Assembly (NCBI RefSeq): GCF_004353825.1
Contig: NZ_SMNA01000005.1
Span: forward strand, 310,001 to 374,000
Length of the DNA stretch: 64,000 bases
Source of the DNA: Occultella glacieicola
GTDB taxonomy: Bacteria; Actinomycetota; Actinomycetes; Actinomycetales; Beutenbergiaceae
Direction of reading: 5' to 3'
In this document: piece by piece, positions 9,432 to 22,249 of the stretch
Numbering within the stretch: the first letter of the stretch is position 1
Layout of the letters: every line of letters starts with the position of its first letter
The notes under the pieces: model-generated
What the model was told of the DNA's origin: nothing
Database searches by the model: none
Seen by the model: only the letters and a program-made list of their open reading frames with translations
Program-made: the position numbers and the translations under genes

Positions 9432-12152
9432 GTGACGCTCCTCGGCAGGGCGGCCGAGCAGGAGACGGTGTCCCGCCTCCTGGCCTCGGCGCGCCTGGGC
9501 AGCGGAGGGGTGCTGACGATCATCGGCGAACCGGGCGTCGGCAAGACGTCGCTGCTCACCGGAGCGCTCGAGAGCCTGCCGCCAGGTGGCGTGCGCGTGC
9601 TTCGGGCGACGCCCGCGGAGTCCGAGGGGAATCTGCCGTTCGCTGCGCTGCACGCCCTGGTGCTGCCCGCGCTACCGCTTCTCGATGATATTCCGGCCCC
9701 GCAGGCACTGGCCCTCGGCACCGCGCTGAGCCTGCGGCACGGCGGCGAACCGGACCGGTTCGCGATCGGTGCCGCGACGCTGAGCCTGCTGAGCCGGTAT
9801 GCCGAGGATGGGCCGGTGGTTGTGGTGCTCGACGACGTGCAGTGGGCGGACCAACCCTCCGTCGACGCCTTCGCGTTCGCGGCGCGCCGGGTACACAACG
9901 ACCCGATCGCGATCCTGATCGCGGGGCGCAGCGCCGAACTGCCGGAACCGGTGCGGGGTATGCCCACGATCGAGCTCGGCGGCCTGTCCCCCGAGGCCGC
10001 GGAGAATCTGCTGGCCGAGGCGTTCGGCTCATCGGACTGCCGGCGCGACGTCGACGGGCTGTACCGTTCAACCGGCGGGAACCCCCTGGCCCTACTCGAG
10101 TTGGCCGGCGAGCCGGACCCGGGCGACGCCGCCGGCGCTGGCCTGCCGCGGACCCTGCCCGACCGACTGCAGCGCACCTTCGCCCGGCGGCTGGAGGCAC
10201 TCACCCCGGACGAGCGCACCGTCGCGATGGTGGCCGCGATGGCCGGCGACGACCTTCGGCTCACCCGCGCCGCCTGTGGCCGTCTCGGCGTGGACCCCGC
10301 CGGCCTGGACGGTGCGTCCGGAGCCGGCCTGATCGCCGTCGACGGCGCTCACGTGACCTTCCGGCACCCGCTCCTGCGGGCGGCCGCCTACGGCTCGGTG
10401 ACGCCCGACCTGCGGCGGCGGGCGCATCTCGCCCTGGCCGCGGAACTCGTCGGTGTGGACGCCGACCGCCACGCCTGGCACCTCGCGGCGGCCACGACCC
10501 ACCTCGACGAGCCGGTCGCCGCACTCCTCGCGGACCTCGGCGGCCGAGCCAGCGCGCGCACCGCGTTCACGGTCGCCGCGACGGCCTACGAACGGGCGGC
10601 GCGGCTGAGCCCGGACCCCGGCGACAGCCACGACCGGATGATCGCCGCCGCCCGCGCGGCCTGGGCCGGGGGCCAACGCGATCGGGCCCTGGCCCTGCTC
10701 GACGAGGTGGAGCCACCGAGCGGACCTGCGACCGCGCCCGGATCCGAGCTACGGGCCACTATCGCCGTGCGCTCCGGCTCGGCCCGCGAGGGCCTCGGTC
10801 TTCTCGAGCGCGCGGCCGAGCTCGCCGATCCCGACCAGCGGGTGCTGATCCTGGCGCAGGCGTGGCATGCCTGCATGTACCTCACCGACACCACCGCCAT
10901 GCGGCGGATCGACGCGCGGCTCGCCGCCGCCCTGCCGTTCGCGACGGACCCCGTGGCCGGCGCCGTCGGGCTGGCCGCGTCCGGAACCGCCGGAGTACTG
11001 CTCGGCCGGGACAGCAGGGCAGTGCTCTCCGACGCCGTGTCGCAGCTGGCCGACCACGTCGACCCGCTCGCGCATCCGGCCGCGCTTCCGTGGCTGCTGC
11101 TCGCGCCGCTGTTCCTGCGTGATGCCGACGCCGGAAGCGAGCTGCGCACCCTCGTGGACCGGGTGCGGGAGCGGGTCGGTGTGGGGGCGCTGCCGAACCT
11201 GCTCTTCCACGTGGCCCGCGACCAGGCGACCACGAACGCCTGGGACCGGGCGGCGGCCAACTACGACGAGGCGGCCCGGCTGGCCCGGGAGACCGGTCAG
11301 GGCGGCGAGCTGGCGATGTCGCTTGCGGGGCTGGCCTGCCTCGAGGCCCGCTCCGGTCGGGCCGCACAGTGCCGGGAGCACGCCGCGGACGCGCTGGCCC
11401 GCTGCCGGGAGCGATCGATCCGCTTCGGTGAGATCTGGTGCGAACTCGCCGTGGGCGAGCTGGCCCTGTCCGAGGGCAGGCCGGTCGAGGCCGCGCAACG
11501 GCTCGGTGGGGTCGCTGCCCGGCTCGATCAGGACCAGGTCGGCGACCCCGATCTGCATCCCGGGCCGGACCTGGTCGATGCCCTGCTGCGGACCGGCGCC
11601 GCCGACGCCGCGGCCGAGGTGACCGCGCGATTCACGGCCGCAGCGGCCGCGAGCGGGCGACCATGGACCCTCGCGCGGGCCGACCGGGCGCTCGGCCTGA
11701 TCGCGACCGACGAGGACTTCGAGACGCACTTCGCCTCCGCGCTGGCGCACCACCGGCACACCCGGGACGAGTTCGAGACGGCGCGGACCCAGCTGGCACT
11801 GGGGATGCGGCTGCGTCGGGCCGGGCGACGGGTCGACGCCCGCACCTCCCTGCGCGCCGCGCTGACGTCGTTCGACGAGCTGGGGGCGCGGCTCTGGGCG
11901 GCGAACGCCCGGACCGAGCTGGAGGCCACCGGCGAGCACGTGCGGCCGCGCGAAGCCGCGGGCCCCGGCGCCCTCACGCCGCAGGAACTTCAGGTGTGCC
12001 TCCTGCTCGCTGAGGGCCGGACCACCCGGGAGGCCGCGGCGGCCCTGTTCCTGAGCCCGAAGACGATCGAGTACCACCTGCGCAAGGCCTACACGAAGCT
12101 CGCGATCCACTCCCGGGACGAACTCGCCGTCGTCCTGAGCGACGTGGGCTGA
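9432..12152 (+). CDS. Large ATP-binding LuxR-family (LAL/STAND) transcriptional regulator
   Basis: GEPGVGKTSLL, VVLDDVQWAD, TGGNPLALLEL, FRHPLLR, C-terminal LTPQELQV...LFLSPKTIEYHLRKAYTKL. Confidence 0.93.
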   Translation: MTLLGRAAEQETVSRLLASARLGSGGVLTIIGEPGVGKTSLLTGALESLPPGGVRVLRATPAESEGNLPFAALHALVLPALPLLDDIPAPQALALGTALSLRHGGEPDRFAIGAATLSLLSRYAEDGPVVVVLDDVQWADQPSVDAFAFAARRVHNDPIAILIAGRSAELPEPVRGMPTIELGGLSPEAAENLLAEAFGSSDCRRDVDGLYRSTGGNPLALLELAGEPDPGDAAGAGLPRTLPDRLQRTFARRLEALTPDERTVAMVAAMAGDDLRLTRAACGRLGVDPAGLDGASGAGLIAVDGAHVTFRHPLLRAAAYGSVTPDLRRRAHLALAAELVGVDADRHAWHLAAATTHLDEPVAALLADLGGRASARTAFTVAATAYERAARLSPDPGDSHDRMIAAARAAWAGGQRDRALALLDEVEPPSGPATAPGSELRATIAVRSGSAREGLGLLERAAELADPDQRVLILAQAWHACMYLTDTTAMRRIDARLAAALPFATDPVAGAVGLAASGTAGVLLGRDSRAVLSDAVSQLADHVDPLAHPAALPWLLLAPLFLRDADAGSELRTLVDRVRERVGVGALPNLLFHVARDQATTNAWDRAAANYDEAARLARETGQGGELAMSLAGLACLEARSGRAAQCREHAADALARCRERSIRFGEIWCELAVGELALSEGRPVEAAQRLGGVAARLDQDQVGDPDLHPGPDLVDALLRTGAADAAAEVTARFTAAAAASGRPWTLARADRALGLIATDEDFETHFASALAHHRHTRDEFETARTQLALGMRLRRAGRRVDARTSLRAALTSFDELGARLWAANARTELEATGEHVRPREAAGPGALTPQELQVCLLLAEGRTTREAAAALFLSPKTIEYHLRKAYTKLAIHSRDELAVVLSDVG

Positions 12153-17189: not shown

Positions 17190-17885
17190 TCAGCGCTCGC
17201 CGGGCTCCCGGATCGCCACCCGAACGCCCCGGGCCCGGCCGAGGACCTCGGTCAGGACCTGCAGCCGCGGGTCGCCGATGTCGTGGAAGGACCGCCGGGG
17301 CAGGTCGACCACGGCGCGCAACCGCGGCTCGGCCAGGACCTGCGCCGCCAGCGCCCGGTCCCCGCCGAGGACCAGCCCGGCCCCGGCGGGCGGCACGGGA
17401 TGCTCGGCGAGCATCCGCACGACGTGACCGACGACCGCGGTGACCAGTTCGTCGGCCTGGTTGCCCCGCCGTCGGGCGAAGCGTTGCTGCGACCAGCCGC
17501 CCGCGGCCGTACGCGACTGCACGTAGCGGGTGCCGCTCTTGTGCGCGGTCAGGTCGGCGCCGTGCGCCCGCCCGACGGCGTACCCGCCACGGCGGAGCAG
17601 GATCAGGACGAGTTCGGCCGGGCCGTGCGCCCAGTCGGGCAGGCGGTCGAGGGCACTGGGGGGCTCGCCCGGCCAGGCCGTCAGGACGGCGGTGGCGCCG
17701 TCCCCGCCGAGCAGCACCACGCCGTCGGGCGGTGGTTCCGGGACGTGCGACCCGGCCGGTGCCGCGTCGCGGCCGGCTCCCGGCCGGACGAGGCGGGCGC
17801 CGTCGTGCCGTTCGGCGAAGCCCTCCACCCAGCGGGCCACCCGCGCGGGCGCTACCTCGAGGCGGCGTTCGGGGGCGTGGGGCAC
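17190..17885 (-). CDS. acVLRF1-family (Vms1/aeRF1-like) peptidyl-tRNA hydrolase
   Basis: LLRRGGYAVG and HKSGTRYVQSRTAAGGWSQQRFARRRGNQA signature. Confidence 0.85.
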   Translation of the reverse strand: MPHAPERRLEVAPARVARWVEGFAERHDGARLVRPGAGRDAAPAGSHVPEPPPDGVVLLGGDGATAVLTAWPGEPPSALDRLPDWAHGPAELVLILLRRGGYAVGRAHGADLTAHKSGTRYVQSRTAAGGWSQQRFARRRGNQADELVTAVVGHVVRMLAEHPVPPAGAGLVLGGDRALAAQVLAEPRLRAVVDLPRRSFHDIGDPRLQVLTEVLGRARGVRVAIREPGER

Positions 17886-17920: not shown

Positions 17921-18529
17921 TCAGCGCGCCTCGTGGACCCGGGTGCGCAGCGCGGTGATCAGGCCCGAGAGCGCCGGGACCGGGTCGGTGTGCACGAGGT
18001 CGCCGTCGGTGCGGTACCGGTGCACGTGCAGCTGCCCATGCACCCGGGTGACGTCCTCGGTCCACTCGGGTTCGCGGACCAGGTCGCCGACCGCCCCCCG
18101 GTCGAGTTCGGTCCGCTCGGCGGTGGTCGCCCCGGAGGCATCCGTGGTGAGCATGACGTCACGGAGTTCGCCGGTGTGCAGCAGCCAGAGCTCGCGGACC
18201 CGGCGCCCGACCTCCGGGCCGACGCGCTCACCCCTGCCGTCGGCGACATAGCGCTCCTCCACGGGGGTCCCGAACACCCGCCACCCGTCGATCGGCTCGC
18301 GTCGCTCCATGGTGGGGACCCGAACGGACTCGCCGAGCTGGTGCCAGCCGAACTGCTCGGCCGAGTGCGCCGGCCGATACTCCTGGGCCAGCCACTCGTC
18401 CCGCGGCACCCGGGCCGCCTCCAACTCGTGGGCGACCTTGCGAGCGAAGGCGAGCACATGCGCGAACGCGGTGGCCTCGTCCGGCTCCGCCGCCTTCAGA
18501 TCGCTGGATTGTTCGACCGTCTCCGACAT
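17921..18529 (-). CDS. Hypothetical protein
   Basis: GGAGG RBS before MSETVEQ; 202-aa ORF with ordinary composition. Confidence 0.6.
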   Translation of the reverse strand: MSETVEQSSDLKAAEPDEATAFAHVLAFARKVAHELEAARVPRDEWLAQEYRPAHSAEQFGWHQLGESVRVPTMERREPIDGWRVFGTPVEERYVADGRGERVGPEVGRRVRELWLLHTGELRDVMLTTDASGATTAERTELDRGAVGDLVREPEWTEDVTRVHGQLHVHRYRTDGDLVHTDPVPALSGLITALRTRVHEAR

Positions 18530-18674
18530 GACGCCTCCTGCGCTGGTGGCTTCGATTTCGAGTCTCCCACAGGGGCGCACGCGGCGCAGGTGCATCTGCC
18601 CGACGGCGCGTCACCGGGCGCCGCGTCCGCCTGACCCGACGTGCGGGTCGGGTAGGGACCAACGGCAGGTCGCG

Positions 18675-19496
18675 TCAGGGGAGCTGGGCCCCGACGAACC
18701 CGTGGCCGTCGCCGATGGCGCCGGTGAGGAGCGGGACCGACTCGCCGGCGCCGACTTCGGCGGCGATCCGGACGTCCTCGCCGTGGCCGGCGGCGGTGAG
18801 TTCGCGCCCGCTGGCGAGGTCGGCCAGCAAACCCTCCCAGCCGGCGGCGGCCGACGCCGCGCGCGCCGCGAGATAGGCGTCCCGGGCCGCCCGCGCCTCG
18901 GGCGAGCACCCACCCGGGGTGCCGTCCGGGCGGGCCGCAGCACCGCCGTCGGGCAGGGCGGTGGCGAACGCGTCGACGACCGCACCCGCACCCCAGAGGT
19001 CCTCGACGGCGGGCCGCAGCGTGTCGTCCGGCCAGCGCTCACCGGCGGCGATCACGAGCACGTCCACGTCCCGCGCGGCGGCCCACCGGCCGACCGTCGT
19101 GGCGTTGCGCAGGCACCCGGCGACCACCCGCGCACCGGCGGACTGCAGCCGGTGGGAGATCGTGGCGCCGTTCGGCGAGGGCAGCACCACCTTGCGGACG
19201 TCGCCGGCCCGGCGCAGCGAGCCCGGCGCGAGGCTGACCTGCCCGGGCGAGGCCTCGTCCCGGCGCACCGCGAGCGCGGCCCCGTGCCGCCGGGCATGGT
19301 CGGCGGCATCGCCGCGGGCCCAGGGGTAGGGCAGCACCTCGACGCCGAGGTCCGCGGCGACCGAGACGGTGGTGCTGAAGCTGAGCACGTCCACGACCAC
19401 GGCGATCCCGCCGGGCCGGATCAGGGCGGCGCCGGCATGGCCCCACTCGAAGCGGATCCGGGCGCCGGCCTGGGTGTGCGCCGGGTCGATGCTCAC
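18675..19496 (-). CDS. 2-phosphosulfolactate phosphatase (ComB) family protein
   Basis: VVVDVLSFST, SPNGA, GCLRNA, AAGERW, RPAVEDLWGAGA; overlaps MFS stop. Confidence 0.88.
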   Translation of the reverse strand: MSIDPAHTQAGARIRFEWGHAGAALIRPGGIAVVVDVLSFSTTVSVAADLGVEVLPYPWARGDAADHARRHGAALAVRRDEASPGQVSLAPGSLRRAGDVRKVVLPSPNGATISHRLQSAGARVVAGCLRNATTVGRWAAARDVDVLVIAAGERWPDDTLRPAVEDLWGAGAVVDAFATALPDGGAAARPDGTPGGCSPEARAARDAYLAARAASAAAGWEGLLADLASGRELTAAGHGEDVRIAAEVGAGESVPLLTGAIGDGHGFVGAQLP

Positions 19497-20725
19497 AGGA
19501 TCCCGGCCCGACGGCGGGTGGTCCGGTTCGCGTGCTCCGACCAGCGGGGTACCCAGCGCCACAGGGCGAGCGCGGCCACGGCGCCGAGGGCGCCCATCGT
19601 CGCGATCCCGGCCGCGAGCGACCCGAGCGCGGTCCCGGCGGAGACCACGAGCGGCCCGGAGGCGCTGCCGGAGTCGGAGAACAGCCGCCAGATGCCGAGG
19701 TACTGGGCCCGCTCGGCCGGTGGTGCGGTGTCCGCGCCGAGGGTCATCAGGATGCCGGAGCCGATGCCGTTGCCGAAGCCCATGACCATGGCCACGATGC
19801 TGATGCTGACGAGGCCCTCGGTGAAGGTCAGCGCGATCATCGCGGCGCCCATGACGAGCATCGACGGGATCGCCACCCAGAGCCGACCGAACCGGTCCAT
19901 GACCTTGCCGGCCGGGTAGAACAGCAGCATGTCGACGGCGCCGGAGATCCCGAACACGAGGGCGGTGGCGGAGGGTTCGAAGCCGAGGTGTTCGGTCCAC
20001 AGGGGCAGGACCGTCTGGCGGGCGCCACGGACCGCGCCGACGAGCAGCACGGCCACGCCCAGGGTGCGGAACACCGGCAGGTACTCGGCGAACACGGTCC
20101 GCATCGGACGGCGCGGTGCCGCGTCCCGGGCGGCGACCGTGCGTTCGTGCGCCACCTCCGGCGCGAGGATCACCACCACGGCCGCGAGCAGGGACGTGCC
20201 CACCCCGAGCCAGTAGGCGTTCGCGGTGTCCGCGCCGCCGTGGACCAGTGCGGCGCCGGCGAACGGGCCGATGAACAGCCCGATCCGGGCCACGCCGCCG
20301 AGCGTGGACAGCGCCCGGGCCCGGCGCAGTGGGTGGATCACCTCGGTCAGGTAGGACTGCCGGGCGAGGGTGTACACCGAGTTCGTGGCACCCACGAGCA
20401 GCACGCCGACGCCGATCACGAGCAGGTTCGGTGCGAGCGCCAGGGTGGCCATGCCGCCCATCGCCACCACCGACGAGCCGATCATGGCCCGGCGGTCCCC
20501 GAACCGGGCGGCAAGCATCCCGGCGGGCACATCGGCGAGGATCTGCCCGATCGGCAGCAGCGCGGCCACCAGTGCCGCGGTGGCCAGATCCGCGCCGAGG
20601 CCGATCGCGGTGACCGCGATGAGCGGCAGCATCGCGCCCACGCCGATCTCGAACAGCAACGAGGGCAGGTACACGCCGGGGATCATCGATCGCAGGGACG
20701 TGGTGTGCTCGGGGGTCGGTGTCAT
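19493..20725 (-). CDS. MFS transporter
   Basis: About 12 TM helices; AGMLAARFGDRR and GKVMDRFGR motif-A copies. Confidence 0.9.
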   Translation of the reverse strand: MTPTPEHTTSLRSMIPGVYLPSLLFEIGVGAMLPLIAVTAIGLGADLATAALVAALLPIGQILADVPAGMLAARFGDRRAMIGSSVVAMGGMATLALAPNLLVIGVGVLLVGATNSVYTLARQSYLTEVIHPLRRARALSTLGGVARIGLFIGPFAGAALVHGGADTANAYWLGVGTSLLAAVVVILAPEVAHERTVAARDAAPRRPMRTVFAEYLPVFRTLGVAVLLVGAVRGARQTVLPLWTEHLGFEPSATALVFGISGAVDMLLFYPAGKVMDRFGRLWVAIPSMLVMGAAMIALTFTEGLVSISIVAMVMGFGNGIGSGILMTLGADTAPPAERAQYLGIWRLFSDSGSASGPLVVSAGTALGSLAAGIATMGALGAVAALALWRWVPRWSEHANRTTRRRAGIL

Positions 20726-20827
20726 CGCGGGGTCATCGTCTCGCACCGGCCCGGTCCGGCGCGCGGCGGGTCAGGTGGCAAGACGGTCCGCCCCGTGTGG
20801 CCGAACCATCGGCAGTACCCACGCGAA

Positions 20828-20866
20828 GGGCCCGTGGGAACACCGAGATGGTGTCCACACGGGCCC
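20828..20866 (-). terminator. Hairpin just downstream of the repeat-peptide gene
   Basis: GGGCCCGTG...ACACC-gagat-GGTGT...CACGGGCCC, 15 nt after the stop. Confidence 0.65.
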
Positions 20867-20881
20867 CCGGGACCTCGAAGG

Positions 20882-21163
20882 TCAGATGAGTTCGTCGCCC
20901 CAGCCGTTGCGGATCAGTTCGTCACCCCAGCCGGCGCGGATCAATTCGTCGCCCCACCCGTTGCGGATCAGTTCGTCGCCCCAGCCGGCGCGGATCAGTT
21001 CGTCGCCCCACCCGTTGCGGATCAGTTCGTCGCCCCAGCCCGTGGCGACGGAACCGTCATCCTGCGTGGCGGCGATGGCGGCAGGGGCAATAGCGACAAG
21101 TCCGAGTGCGGCGGCAGCAGCGACGGCGGCGACTCGGACTCTTAAGCGGAAAGACTTCTGCAT
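20882..21163 (-). CDS. 93-aa secreted protein: Sec-type signal peptide plus six xGWGDELI(R) repeats
   Basis: AAGGAG RBS, basic N-region, Ala/Leu H-region, AIA|A cleavage-like site, in-frame 27-bp repeats, downstream hairpin. Confidence 0.8.
   Translation of the reverse strand: MQKSFRLRVRVAAVAAAAALGLVAIAPAAIAATQDDGSVATGWGDELIRNGWGDELIRAGWGDELIRNGWGDELIRAGWGDELIRNGWGDELI
20885..21043 (-). repeat. Coding tandem repeat, 6 x 27 bp
   Basis: Units encode TGWGDELIR, NGWGDELIR, AGWGDELIR, NGWGDELIR, AGWGDELIR, NGWGDELI; other differences are synonymous. Confidence 0.95.
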
Positions 21164-21328
21164 GTTCAGGGCTCCTTGAGACGGGGTAAGGCGCATGGTT
21201 GTCCACAACTGTGGCTTGCACGATCAAATCTACCCCAGGGGGCACCTTTGGGCGAGCCCTCGTTATCACACCTGTGGGCGATCCACGAAACGCTTCGTGG
21301 GCCCGCGACCCCGGTCGAGCCGGGTGTC

Positions 21329-22249
21329 TCAATCCGTCGGCGTCTGCTCGCCACCCGACTCGGGTGCGACCTCCGCGTCCGCCACGGGGGCCGGTTCCGC
21401 ATCCGCCACGGTTGCCGGTTCCGCTACAGGCGCCGCCTCCGCGCCGTCCGTCGTCAACGGTTCGGTGGCGACGACCTCGATGTCGGCCTCGTCCAGGTGT
21501 GGCGCGCTCTGCTGCCACTCGTGCCCCTGCGGCGGGACGTCGGTCTCGGAGTGGGCACCGCAGCCGTGATCGAGGGAGACCACCTTGCCGTCGTCGGGTG
21601 ACCACTCGTTGGCGCAGACCCCGAAGACGGTCCCGAGCGACCCGGCGATCCGGACGATGAAGCCACAGTCGGCGCAGTTGGCGCCGGCCGCCTTGGTGCC
21701 CGCGGTGTCCGGGCCCTGCGGGCCCGAGTACCACCGGGTGGCGGCAGCGTCGATCGCCCGACGGTTCATGACCCGGTCACGGCCGAGGCCGAGCTCCGTG
21801 ATCGCGACCCGTGCCTCCTCCGGGTCGGCTGAGGTCAGGTAACCCCGCTCGAGCCGATCGTCCTCGGCCACGTAGGGCAGCCGGTCGGTCGGCCCCAGAT
21901 CGCCCGGCGCCAGCCGCTCCGCCCAGGGCAGCCAGTCCGGAGCCAGCAGGGCGCCGTCACCGGGCAGCAGCCCGCTCTCGCAGACCGTGGCGGTCCGGGA
22001 CCTCGAGATCCGGGACATGGTCACATACCAGCGCCAGCCCTCGTAGCCGGGCGAGGTGGCCGCGAAATAGTGCGTCGCGAGCCGCTCCGCCTCGAGCACC
22101 ATGCCGAGGTGGTCACCGACGTCCTTGGCGCCCGCCTCCAGCAGCGTGTCGCGGGCCTGCTCGACGGCGCCAGCGAGGACGGCATCCTTGGCCGGCCGAC
22201 GGGCGCCGGCCGTGGTGGTGGTTGATGGCACGGTGAAGGTCTCCGTCAT
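21329..22249 (-). CDS. DUF3027 domain protein
   Basis: THYFAATSPGYEGWRW, LLAPDWLPWAERL, CADCGF...FGVCANEWSPDDGKVVSLDHGCGAHS. Confidence 0.9.
   Translation of the reverse strand: MTETFTVPSTTTTAGARRPAKDAVLAGAVEQARDTLLEAGAKDVGDHLGMVLEAERLATHYFAATSPGYEGWRWYVTMSRISRSRTATVCESGLLPGDGALLAPDWLPWAERLAPGDLGPTDRLPYVAEDDRLERGYLTSADPEEARVAITELGLGRDRVMNRRAIDAAATRWYSGPQGPDTAGTKAAGANCADCGFIVRIAGSLGTVFGVCANEWSPDDGKVVSLDHGCGAHSETDVPPQGHEWQQSAPHLDEADIEVVATEPLTTDGAEAAPVAEPATVADAEPAPVADAEVAPESGGEQTPTD

Follow-up and report, generated by a model that had tools for sequence, protein, structure and literature searches.

The DNA analysed here (the window) is a stretch of 64 000 nt from the genome of Occultella glacieicola (G000). 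On its reverse strand lies a reading frame of 93 aa, with the ATG at 21163 and the TGA at 20882–20884, which is predicted to encode a peptide precursor composed of a Sec-type signal, a short spacer and six GWGDELI cores (Table 1). The units follow one another in the order TGWGDELIR, NGWGDELIR, AGWGDELIR, NGWGDELIR, AGWGDELIR and NGWGDELI-stop, and TRF reports a period of 27 with 5.8 copies over the repeat. Re-reading of the frame agrees with the original prediction, made from the letters of the DNA, of a stand-alone 93 aa gene with six such units. The claim that the core varies only synonymously also held, as the six cores differ in four columns, all of them synonymous (three third positions and one CTG/TTG leucine codon). 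A ribosome-binding site and a downstream hairpin belonging to the gene had been proposed as well, and both are present: AAGGAG lies 8 nt 5' of the ATG, and the hairpin folds at -34.1 kcal/mol (z -3.11), one of 200 shuffles being equally good. The terminator scan missed this hairpin because it has no U-tract.

Table 1. Features of the precursor locus (positions within the window)
Feature	Position	Strand	Basis
DUF3027 gene, constant upstream neighbour (context only)	21329..22249	-	Locus comparison
Upstream block kept in four same-genus genomes	21178..21262	-	Promoter inferred
-10-like TAGATT inside upstream block	21227-21232	-	Sequence; putative promoter
Ribosome-binding site AAGGAG	21172..21177	-	Sequence
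Precursor gene	20882..21163	-	Reading frame, homologues, coding-type codon use
Predicted Sec signal, residues 1-31, A-I-A at end	21071..21163	-	Charge and hydropathy; cleavage site inferred
Spacer ATQDDGSVAT	21041..21070	-	Homologue comparison; not conserved outside genus
Six GWGDELI cores, joints RN/RA, last core at protein end	20885..21040	-	TRF, unit reading
Downstream hairpin, likely terminator	20824..20869	-	Folding; homologues from Occultella and Ruania keep a hairpin here
MFS_1 transporter, usual downstream neighbour	19493..20704	-	Locus comparison

Four Lys/Arg among residues 1–12 and a 13-residue hydropathy of 2.52 are consistent with the Sec-like signal originally predicted, and R10, A15, P27 and A29 of the leader are invariant across 13 aligned homologues. 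Conservation of the frame in relatives had been set beforehand as a check, and all three other genomes of the genus keep it at 89% identity, with 6, 6 and 8 units. Antisense frames across the repeat were rejected as a real gene, their amino acids changing between copies and between genera. A search of PDB sequences gave a best E of 0.011 and nothing relevant, an Atlas feature search with the precursor gave a top score of 0.84, which we treat as a lead only, and the same search with the Pseudactinotalea form gave no usable feature match. The motifs of the upstream block have no second copy above chance within the genome, and no shared operator was found there. Two similar words flank the gene, TTGTCCACA upstream of it at 21199-21207, presumably an actinobacterial DnaA-box-like word, and GTGTCCACA inside the downstream hairpin at 20851-20859; neither is perfectly kept in relatives.

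The locus was compared in 36 genomes of one family, which we take to be the Beutenbergiaceae. A precursor gene follows DUF3027 in 19 of them, comprising 4/4 Occultella (g1), 10/10 Ruania (g6) and 5/7 Pseudactinotalea (g9); a profile alone detected 11, and the figure of 19 comes from direct reading of the stretch after DUF3027. The precursor was not found in the remaining 17 family genomes; the DUF3027 locus is unassembled in G004 and G041 (<90% complete). The gene order is cold-shock protein, DUF3027, peptide gene, MFS. The MFS gene is present in 31 of the 36 genomes, many of them peptide-negative; it predates and is independent of the peptide gene, and the original view that the two are linked merely by position stands. 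The core alleles follow descent on the DUF3027 and MFS trees, with losses in g7 and in G042 and G043, the last two lacking both the peptide gene and the MFS gene. An antisense gene of 560 aa stands between the two genes in G001–G003 (L029:8423-10117, L030:8193-9881 and L031:8109-9794); it is polysaccharide-biosynthesis-like by sequence resemblance, and a near-perfect 19-21-bp hairpin is common to it and the peptide gene.

Beyond the family, no member was found among 401 genomes of the order, where eight weak profile matches proved to be RTX-repeat or other signal-peptide proteins. A profile search of 1.84 billion representatives gave 28 matches, two of which are family members (P0002 and P0013); the other 26 (six read fully, all 26 motif-counted) were rejected as mostly RTX-like or unrelated repeats. 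A three-copy pattern applied to 185,579 genomes returned 99 loci, and the members among the 80 translated belong to Occultella, Ruania/Ruaniaceae or Pseudactinotalea only. Nine metagenome loci included three members, at the same locus, and six non-members. Searches of the literature for the core strings found no paper, and topic searches found no description of such precursors, within a library covering few subscription journals; passages from PMC4748050, which reviews quorum sensing in actinobacteria, and from PMC12180512 describe nothing similar. These precursors form a real, undescribed and unannotated family of narrow range.

The core alleles found are GWGDELI, GGGDEELI, GxxDEEVI and KDG[D/S]EFI, in 1 to 22 copies per gene and joined by unrelated linkers. 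GWGDELI occurs in Occultella and one Ruania clade (4–8 copies), GGGDEELI in three or four copies at the same locus of G008 and G046, a single C-terminal GGGGDEEVI or GNGADEEVI behind a signal peptide in G015, G020 and G024, and KDGDEFI or KDGSEFI in 15–22 copies in complete Pseudactinotalea genes; P0013 carries GDGDELI-R three times. The 50 GWGDELI copies of nine genes from two genera are written in 29 distinct DNA sequences that differ by synonymous changes only; these copies were chosen by pattern, and the printed linkers contain no decayed core. The linkers measure one (N) to ten residues, with no resemblance from genus to genus (RN/RA in Occultella as against N, QLNPGGQQTQ and NGGGGYQTL), and the neighbouring MFS proteins are only 65–68% identical where the GWGDELI cores stay invariant. 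The core is therefore invariant while linkers, period and copy number (1–22) change, and cores differ by lineage. This comparative evidence is good, and suggests that the heptapeptide core is the active, selected unit. The idea of a multicopy short-peptide precursor gained support from the invariance of the cores across unrelated linkers, from the lineage alleles and from the single-copy C-terminal alleles.

The original prediction placed processing at arginine. Following the 50 GWGDELI copies are R (22), N (12), Q (7) or a stop (9), so that there is no basic site after every core of the Kex2 type; all 22 Arg junctions are in Occultella, and none of the 19 internal Ruania junctions has Arg, all being I-N or I-Q, with I-S in the DEELI alleles. 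Arg is thus not the general cleavage signal, since it follows GWGDELI in Occultella only. The alternating N/A first residue is real, as had been noted, but belongs to the linker and not to the peptide core. The mature peptide likely ends at Ile, as all 14 Sec-type genes, three of them single-core, end Ile-stop.

By charge and hydropathy, the N-terminus is of Sec type in all 13 complete precursors from Occultella and Ruania (leader hydropathy 2.32–2.78). Six Pseudactinotalea-type precursors (L040, L044, L054, L078, L231 and L345) have a longer last linker (ELxxAGG-like) and no Sec-type leader; since these six leaders score as non-Sec (hydropathy 1.05–1.56), export is, on present predictions, not uniform across the family. 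Their 3' ends extend in every case exactly one residue past the last Ile (L, G, C, W, R or Y), of which drift from an ancestral Arg-stop would be the simplest reading.

Six-frame translation of the 5.3-Mb G000 genome contains GWGDELI seven times, six of them in the precursor. The seventh ends a 16-codon ORF (G000:C21:158926-158976) encoding MFGFFFGLFGWGDELI, preceded by a strong ribosome-binding site, AAGGAGGTG, and followed by a -37.5 kcal/mol hairpin. A 15-kb prophage inserted at tRNA-Arg contains this mini-gene in its early region; it also encodes terminase, portal, capsid, tail and integrase proteins, and its terminase shares about 39% identity with the corresponding enzymes of small Arthrobacter phages. 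When the 36 genomes were searched by pattern, one more extra copy came to light, in G003, where MFRFFFGFLGWGDELI is encoded by the last gene of a prophage arm that contains endolysin, holin and tail genes and ends at tRNA-Thr (about 7 kb was read). A 68-bp stretch (91%) is all that the two prophages have in common, and the G000 terminase has no match in the G003 genome. A third mini-gene, of the Pseudactinotalea allele, lies in an IMG/VR temperate phage (L442:5016-5054; 68% GC) between tail spike and integrase, encodes the 12-residue MSGPKDGDEFIR and has a -42.7 kcal/mol hairpin 3' of it. It was one of nine matches to the pattern RBS + ATG + GDE[L/F]I-x-stop, and fits Pseudactinotalea also in the preceding GP-KD and the one-residue tail, both outside the search pattern. 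The attP-like core of this phage matches 35 of 36 family genomes, and so does not discriminate its host.

Three unrelated phages thus carry a mini-ORF, led by a strong ribosome-binding site and followed by a hairpin of -37 to -43 kcal/mol, that ends in a host-type core. None of the phage peptides has a Sec signal, and both GWGDELI copies end Ile-stop. Two of the three mini-genes stand last before the attachment site, a position that accessory genes commonly occupy. In a control search, the 21-mer coding for GWGDELI turned up once in 400 other Actinomycetia genomes, mid-frame. Extra phage-type copies are rare, there being none in seven of the nine GWGDELI genomes, in five DEE[L/V]I genomes or in five Pseudactinotalea genomes; viral scans found no multi-copy form, and four more scans gave nothing independent. 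Other candidates were discarded: L350, L384 and L388 are the prophage of G000 itself, and L351, L385–L387, L452 and eight of the nine IMG/VR pattern matches either arise by chance, lie out of frame or are the ends of longer proteins. The G000 prophage (G000:C21, about 158200-173800; L349:9181-20000 and L383:1-4800) is a compact 15-kb temperate siphovirus at tRNA-Arg(ACG), and its repressor ORF extends into the attachment sequence that derives from the tRNA, an overlap that presumably reflects integration-dependent immunity.

We consider it probable that the six-core gene encodes a precursor from which a short linear peptide, serving as a signal between cells, is cut after Ile, and that phages imitate this signal via mini-genes. 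That the precursor might yield a signal was part of the original prediction, and this reading is strengthened by the phage mini-genes with the same C-terminal cores. Our working hypothesis is that the host precursor is exported by Sec and cleaved after each Ile, with N-terminal trimming to 5–8 residues. The shared part, [G/D]-[D/E/S]-E-[L/F/V]-I, would be common to the alleles, and the two or three preceding residues would set specificity. The peptide would accumulate, be re-imported by an oligopeptide permease and bind a receptor in the cytoplasm whose gene lies elsewhere, on the model of Phr and NprX; the repeats would raise the yield of peptide per transcript. The phage peptide may act within the infected cell or on release at lysis, because neither the phage peptides nor the Pseudactinotalea precursors have a Sec signal, and would switch the host circuit to signal-on.

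No maturase or receptor adjoins the peptide gene in any locus read, as had been observed for the window, and no linked protease was found. Screens for a receptor were partial, covering five genomes each, with two candidates profiled across all 36. Scans for TPR_12, BTAD and SpoIIE found no protein whose presence tracks the peptide, and the same holds for HisKA_3 (70/77 loci) and AAA_16 (30/53 loci). Four candidates were rejected: a MalT-like LuxR-TPR pair (G000:C8:42238-47409), which 29 of 36 genomes carry, peptide-negative ones among them, and whose TPR region gave no signal; a HisKA_3 kinase (G000:C18:158316), found in g7 and g8 and below threshold in three of five peptide-positive Pseudactinotalea; a SpoIIE phosphatase, missing in G045 and found in G009; and a BTAD protein, missing in G008. 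The G000 genome encodes 12 SBP_bac_5 proteins, which would fit re-import but are generic. The rejected MalT-like pair (L203:7239-12413), a tandem of STAND-TPR-LuxR regulators, interrupts the ribosomal protein region between map and infA, extra MalT-like copies adjoin pilin-like or surface-protein genes in G005, G017 and G041, and a 906 aa AAA_16 and LuxR regulator is encoded at 9432-12152 of the window, 9 kb from the peptide gene.

Streptococcal SHP and ComS come from short precursors whose N-terminus is hydrophobic and whose C-terminus yields the mature peptide. The two phage 16-mers resemble them in these features and in being non-Sec, but have no Rgg or ComR neighbour, are phage-encoded and have a polyprotein as their host version. 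SHP and ComS propeptides are exported by a non-Sec route (PMC10075063). The host precursors resemble Phr and NprX, whose genes contain duplicated autoinducer sequences (PMC5199041), in their Sec signal, short and often C-terminal core, duplicated cores (identical or diverged) and allele diversity (PMC5199041, PMC10075063), and the single-copy C-terminal alleles of G015, G020 and G024 have the Phr/NprX layout itself. They differ in being actinobacterial, in having no adjacent TPR receptor, in reaching 22 copies and 303 aa, in their acidic Ile-terminal core and in including one lineage with no Sec signal, and no sequence similarity was found. Whereas Bacillus pherotypes switch fast, the core alleles here vary slowly and follow the DUF3027 and MFS trees. 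RRNPP systems are defined by a small propeptide (10–100 aa) with a Sec signal and a directly adjacent TPR receptor of 250–500 aa (PMC10075063). The 93 aa precursor, with its Sec signal predicted from charge and hydropathy, fits the propeptide part; the neighbours in all loci read are DUF3027 and MFS_1, and because no TPR receptor is adjacent the family falls outside RRNPP.

Temperate phages are known to encode short signal peptides, as in arbitrium AimP/AimR (PMC11323111) and phage Rap-Phr (PMC10075063), and phage phiCDHM1 carries agr genes (PMC3901668). In contrast to these, the phages described here carry only a 12–16-residue copy of the host core, with no Sec signal. The fully read G000 prophage has no arbitrium-like pair of secreted peptide and TPR receptor, its regulators being a repressor and an excisionase-like gene, none of them receptor-sized; this negative result covers the G000 prophage, the other two phages having been read in part. 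Viruses are included in the tables of candidates in PMC10075063, which might therefore list short phage ORFs. Repeat proteins of fungi that are processed by Kex2, yeast alpha-factor among them, also combine a signal peptide with tandem cores freed by proteolysis, and fungal pheromone genes stand without modifying enzymes (PMC7329392); the present precursors differ in being bacterial, in having no dibasic sites and in their constant boundary after Ile.

The main rival to a cell-to-cell signal is that the core is a ligand that holds in check or activates a defence, toxin or quality-control protein of the host, the phage copies being counter-defence or superinfection-exclusion peptides. Such a role would suit phage copies with no Sec signal, one of them just 12 residues long and two of the three last before the attachment site, as well as Pseudactinotalea precursors that look non-secreted; we also take the acidic-hydrophobic, Ile-terminal tail of the core to resemble PDZ and TPR ligands. 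However, a purely intracellular ligand would have no need of the Sec-type N-terminus seen in 13/13 complete Occultella and Ruania precursors, and no defence gene was recognized beside the host gene; we regard this explanation as unlikely. Rather less credible is a multi-core RiPP or antimicrobial precursor with cores modified or cyclized by enzymes encoded elsewhere. Fungal KEP precursors have this arrangement of a signal with repeated cores (PMC7329392), and the one residue kept after the last Ile in 6/6 Pseudactinotalea-type ends is what a transpeptidase might need. Against this, every locus read is devoid of a modifying enzyme, Trp, Lys and Ser are each limited to one allele so that the alleles share no modifiable residue, the 14 Sec-type genes end Ile-stop with no follower, as do both phage copies of GWGDELI, and no NCBIfam RiPP model comes near its cut-off. 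On the first two of these grounds the multi-core RiPP reading of the original prediction is not supported.

A small secreted calcium-binding or structural protein of RTX-like nonapeptides (GGxGxDxUx), acting intact, was also considered, since the 9-residue unit, acidic and rich in Gly, belongs to a secreted actinobacterial protein and can be aligned with the RTX pattern. The NCBIfam matches are of RTX type only, the model Ca_rpt_SMc04171 giving E 7e-5, and the weak profile matches outside the family include secreted RTX-repeat proteins. Yet all these NCBIfam matches are far under their cut-offs (22 bits against 625 for Ca_rpt_SMc04171), Pfam gives no match at E 0.1, and an AlphaFold2 model of low confidence (pLDDT 46.9) has no strands and no confident fold. 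The calcium-binding Asp at position 6, present in 422 of 429 RTX-like library matches, is Glu here, in units picked with a Glu-containing pattern. A single copy appears to suffice in some alleles, and single-copy alleles, period-8 arrays, proline-rich linkers and 12–16-residue phage versions cannot make a beta-roll; an RTX-like protein is accordingly very improbable. We give equally little credence to a two-gene module in which the adjacent MFS transporter either carries the peptide or is regulated by it. The MFS gene does lie directly downstream in most carriers, and both genes are missing from G042 and G043. This joint loss is nevertheless explicable as one deletion, the MFS gene is found in peptide-negative genera, the 560 aa antisense gene intervenes in G001–G003, and a hairpin lies 3' of the peptide gene in Occultella and Ruania.

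Returning to the signal hypothesis, we incline, if only slightly, to its wider form, namely that this is actinobacterial peptide communication with lineage-specific codes and a receptor, hijacked by phages via 12–16-codon copies of the host signal. Actinobacterial signals are typically small molecules made by enzymes, processed propeptides being a trait of Bacillota (PMC10075063), and a family of unmodified 7-mers with natural alleles offers a cheap and direct test of peptide signalling in Actinobacteria. The phage mini-genes fall under the usual length limits of gene calling. If they work, phages would speak the host code in 12–16 codons, and hidden host signals could be found by searching the ends of very small phage ORFs for the repeat cores of host genes. 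This would be signal mimicry by stand-alone mini-genes, unlike a phage-owned system such as arbitrium.

Several other features were observed. The window encodes a release-factor-like protein (17193-17840) with the motif SRTAAGGWSQQRF, which we take to be acVLRF1-like, and a 200 aa protein with no Pfam match (17924-18595); both recur near the locus in relatives. Elsewhere in G000, four further regions of long tandem-repeat ORFs, at C20:46924-49165, C21:24826-26982, C22:155515-157785 and C23:3-2338, contain 7–14 exact heptamer repeats.
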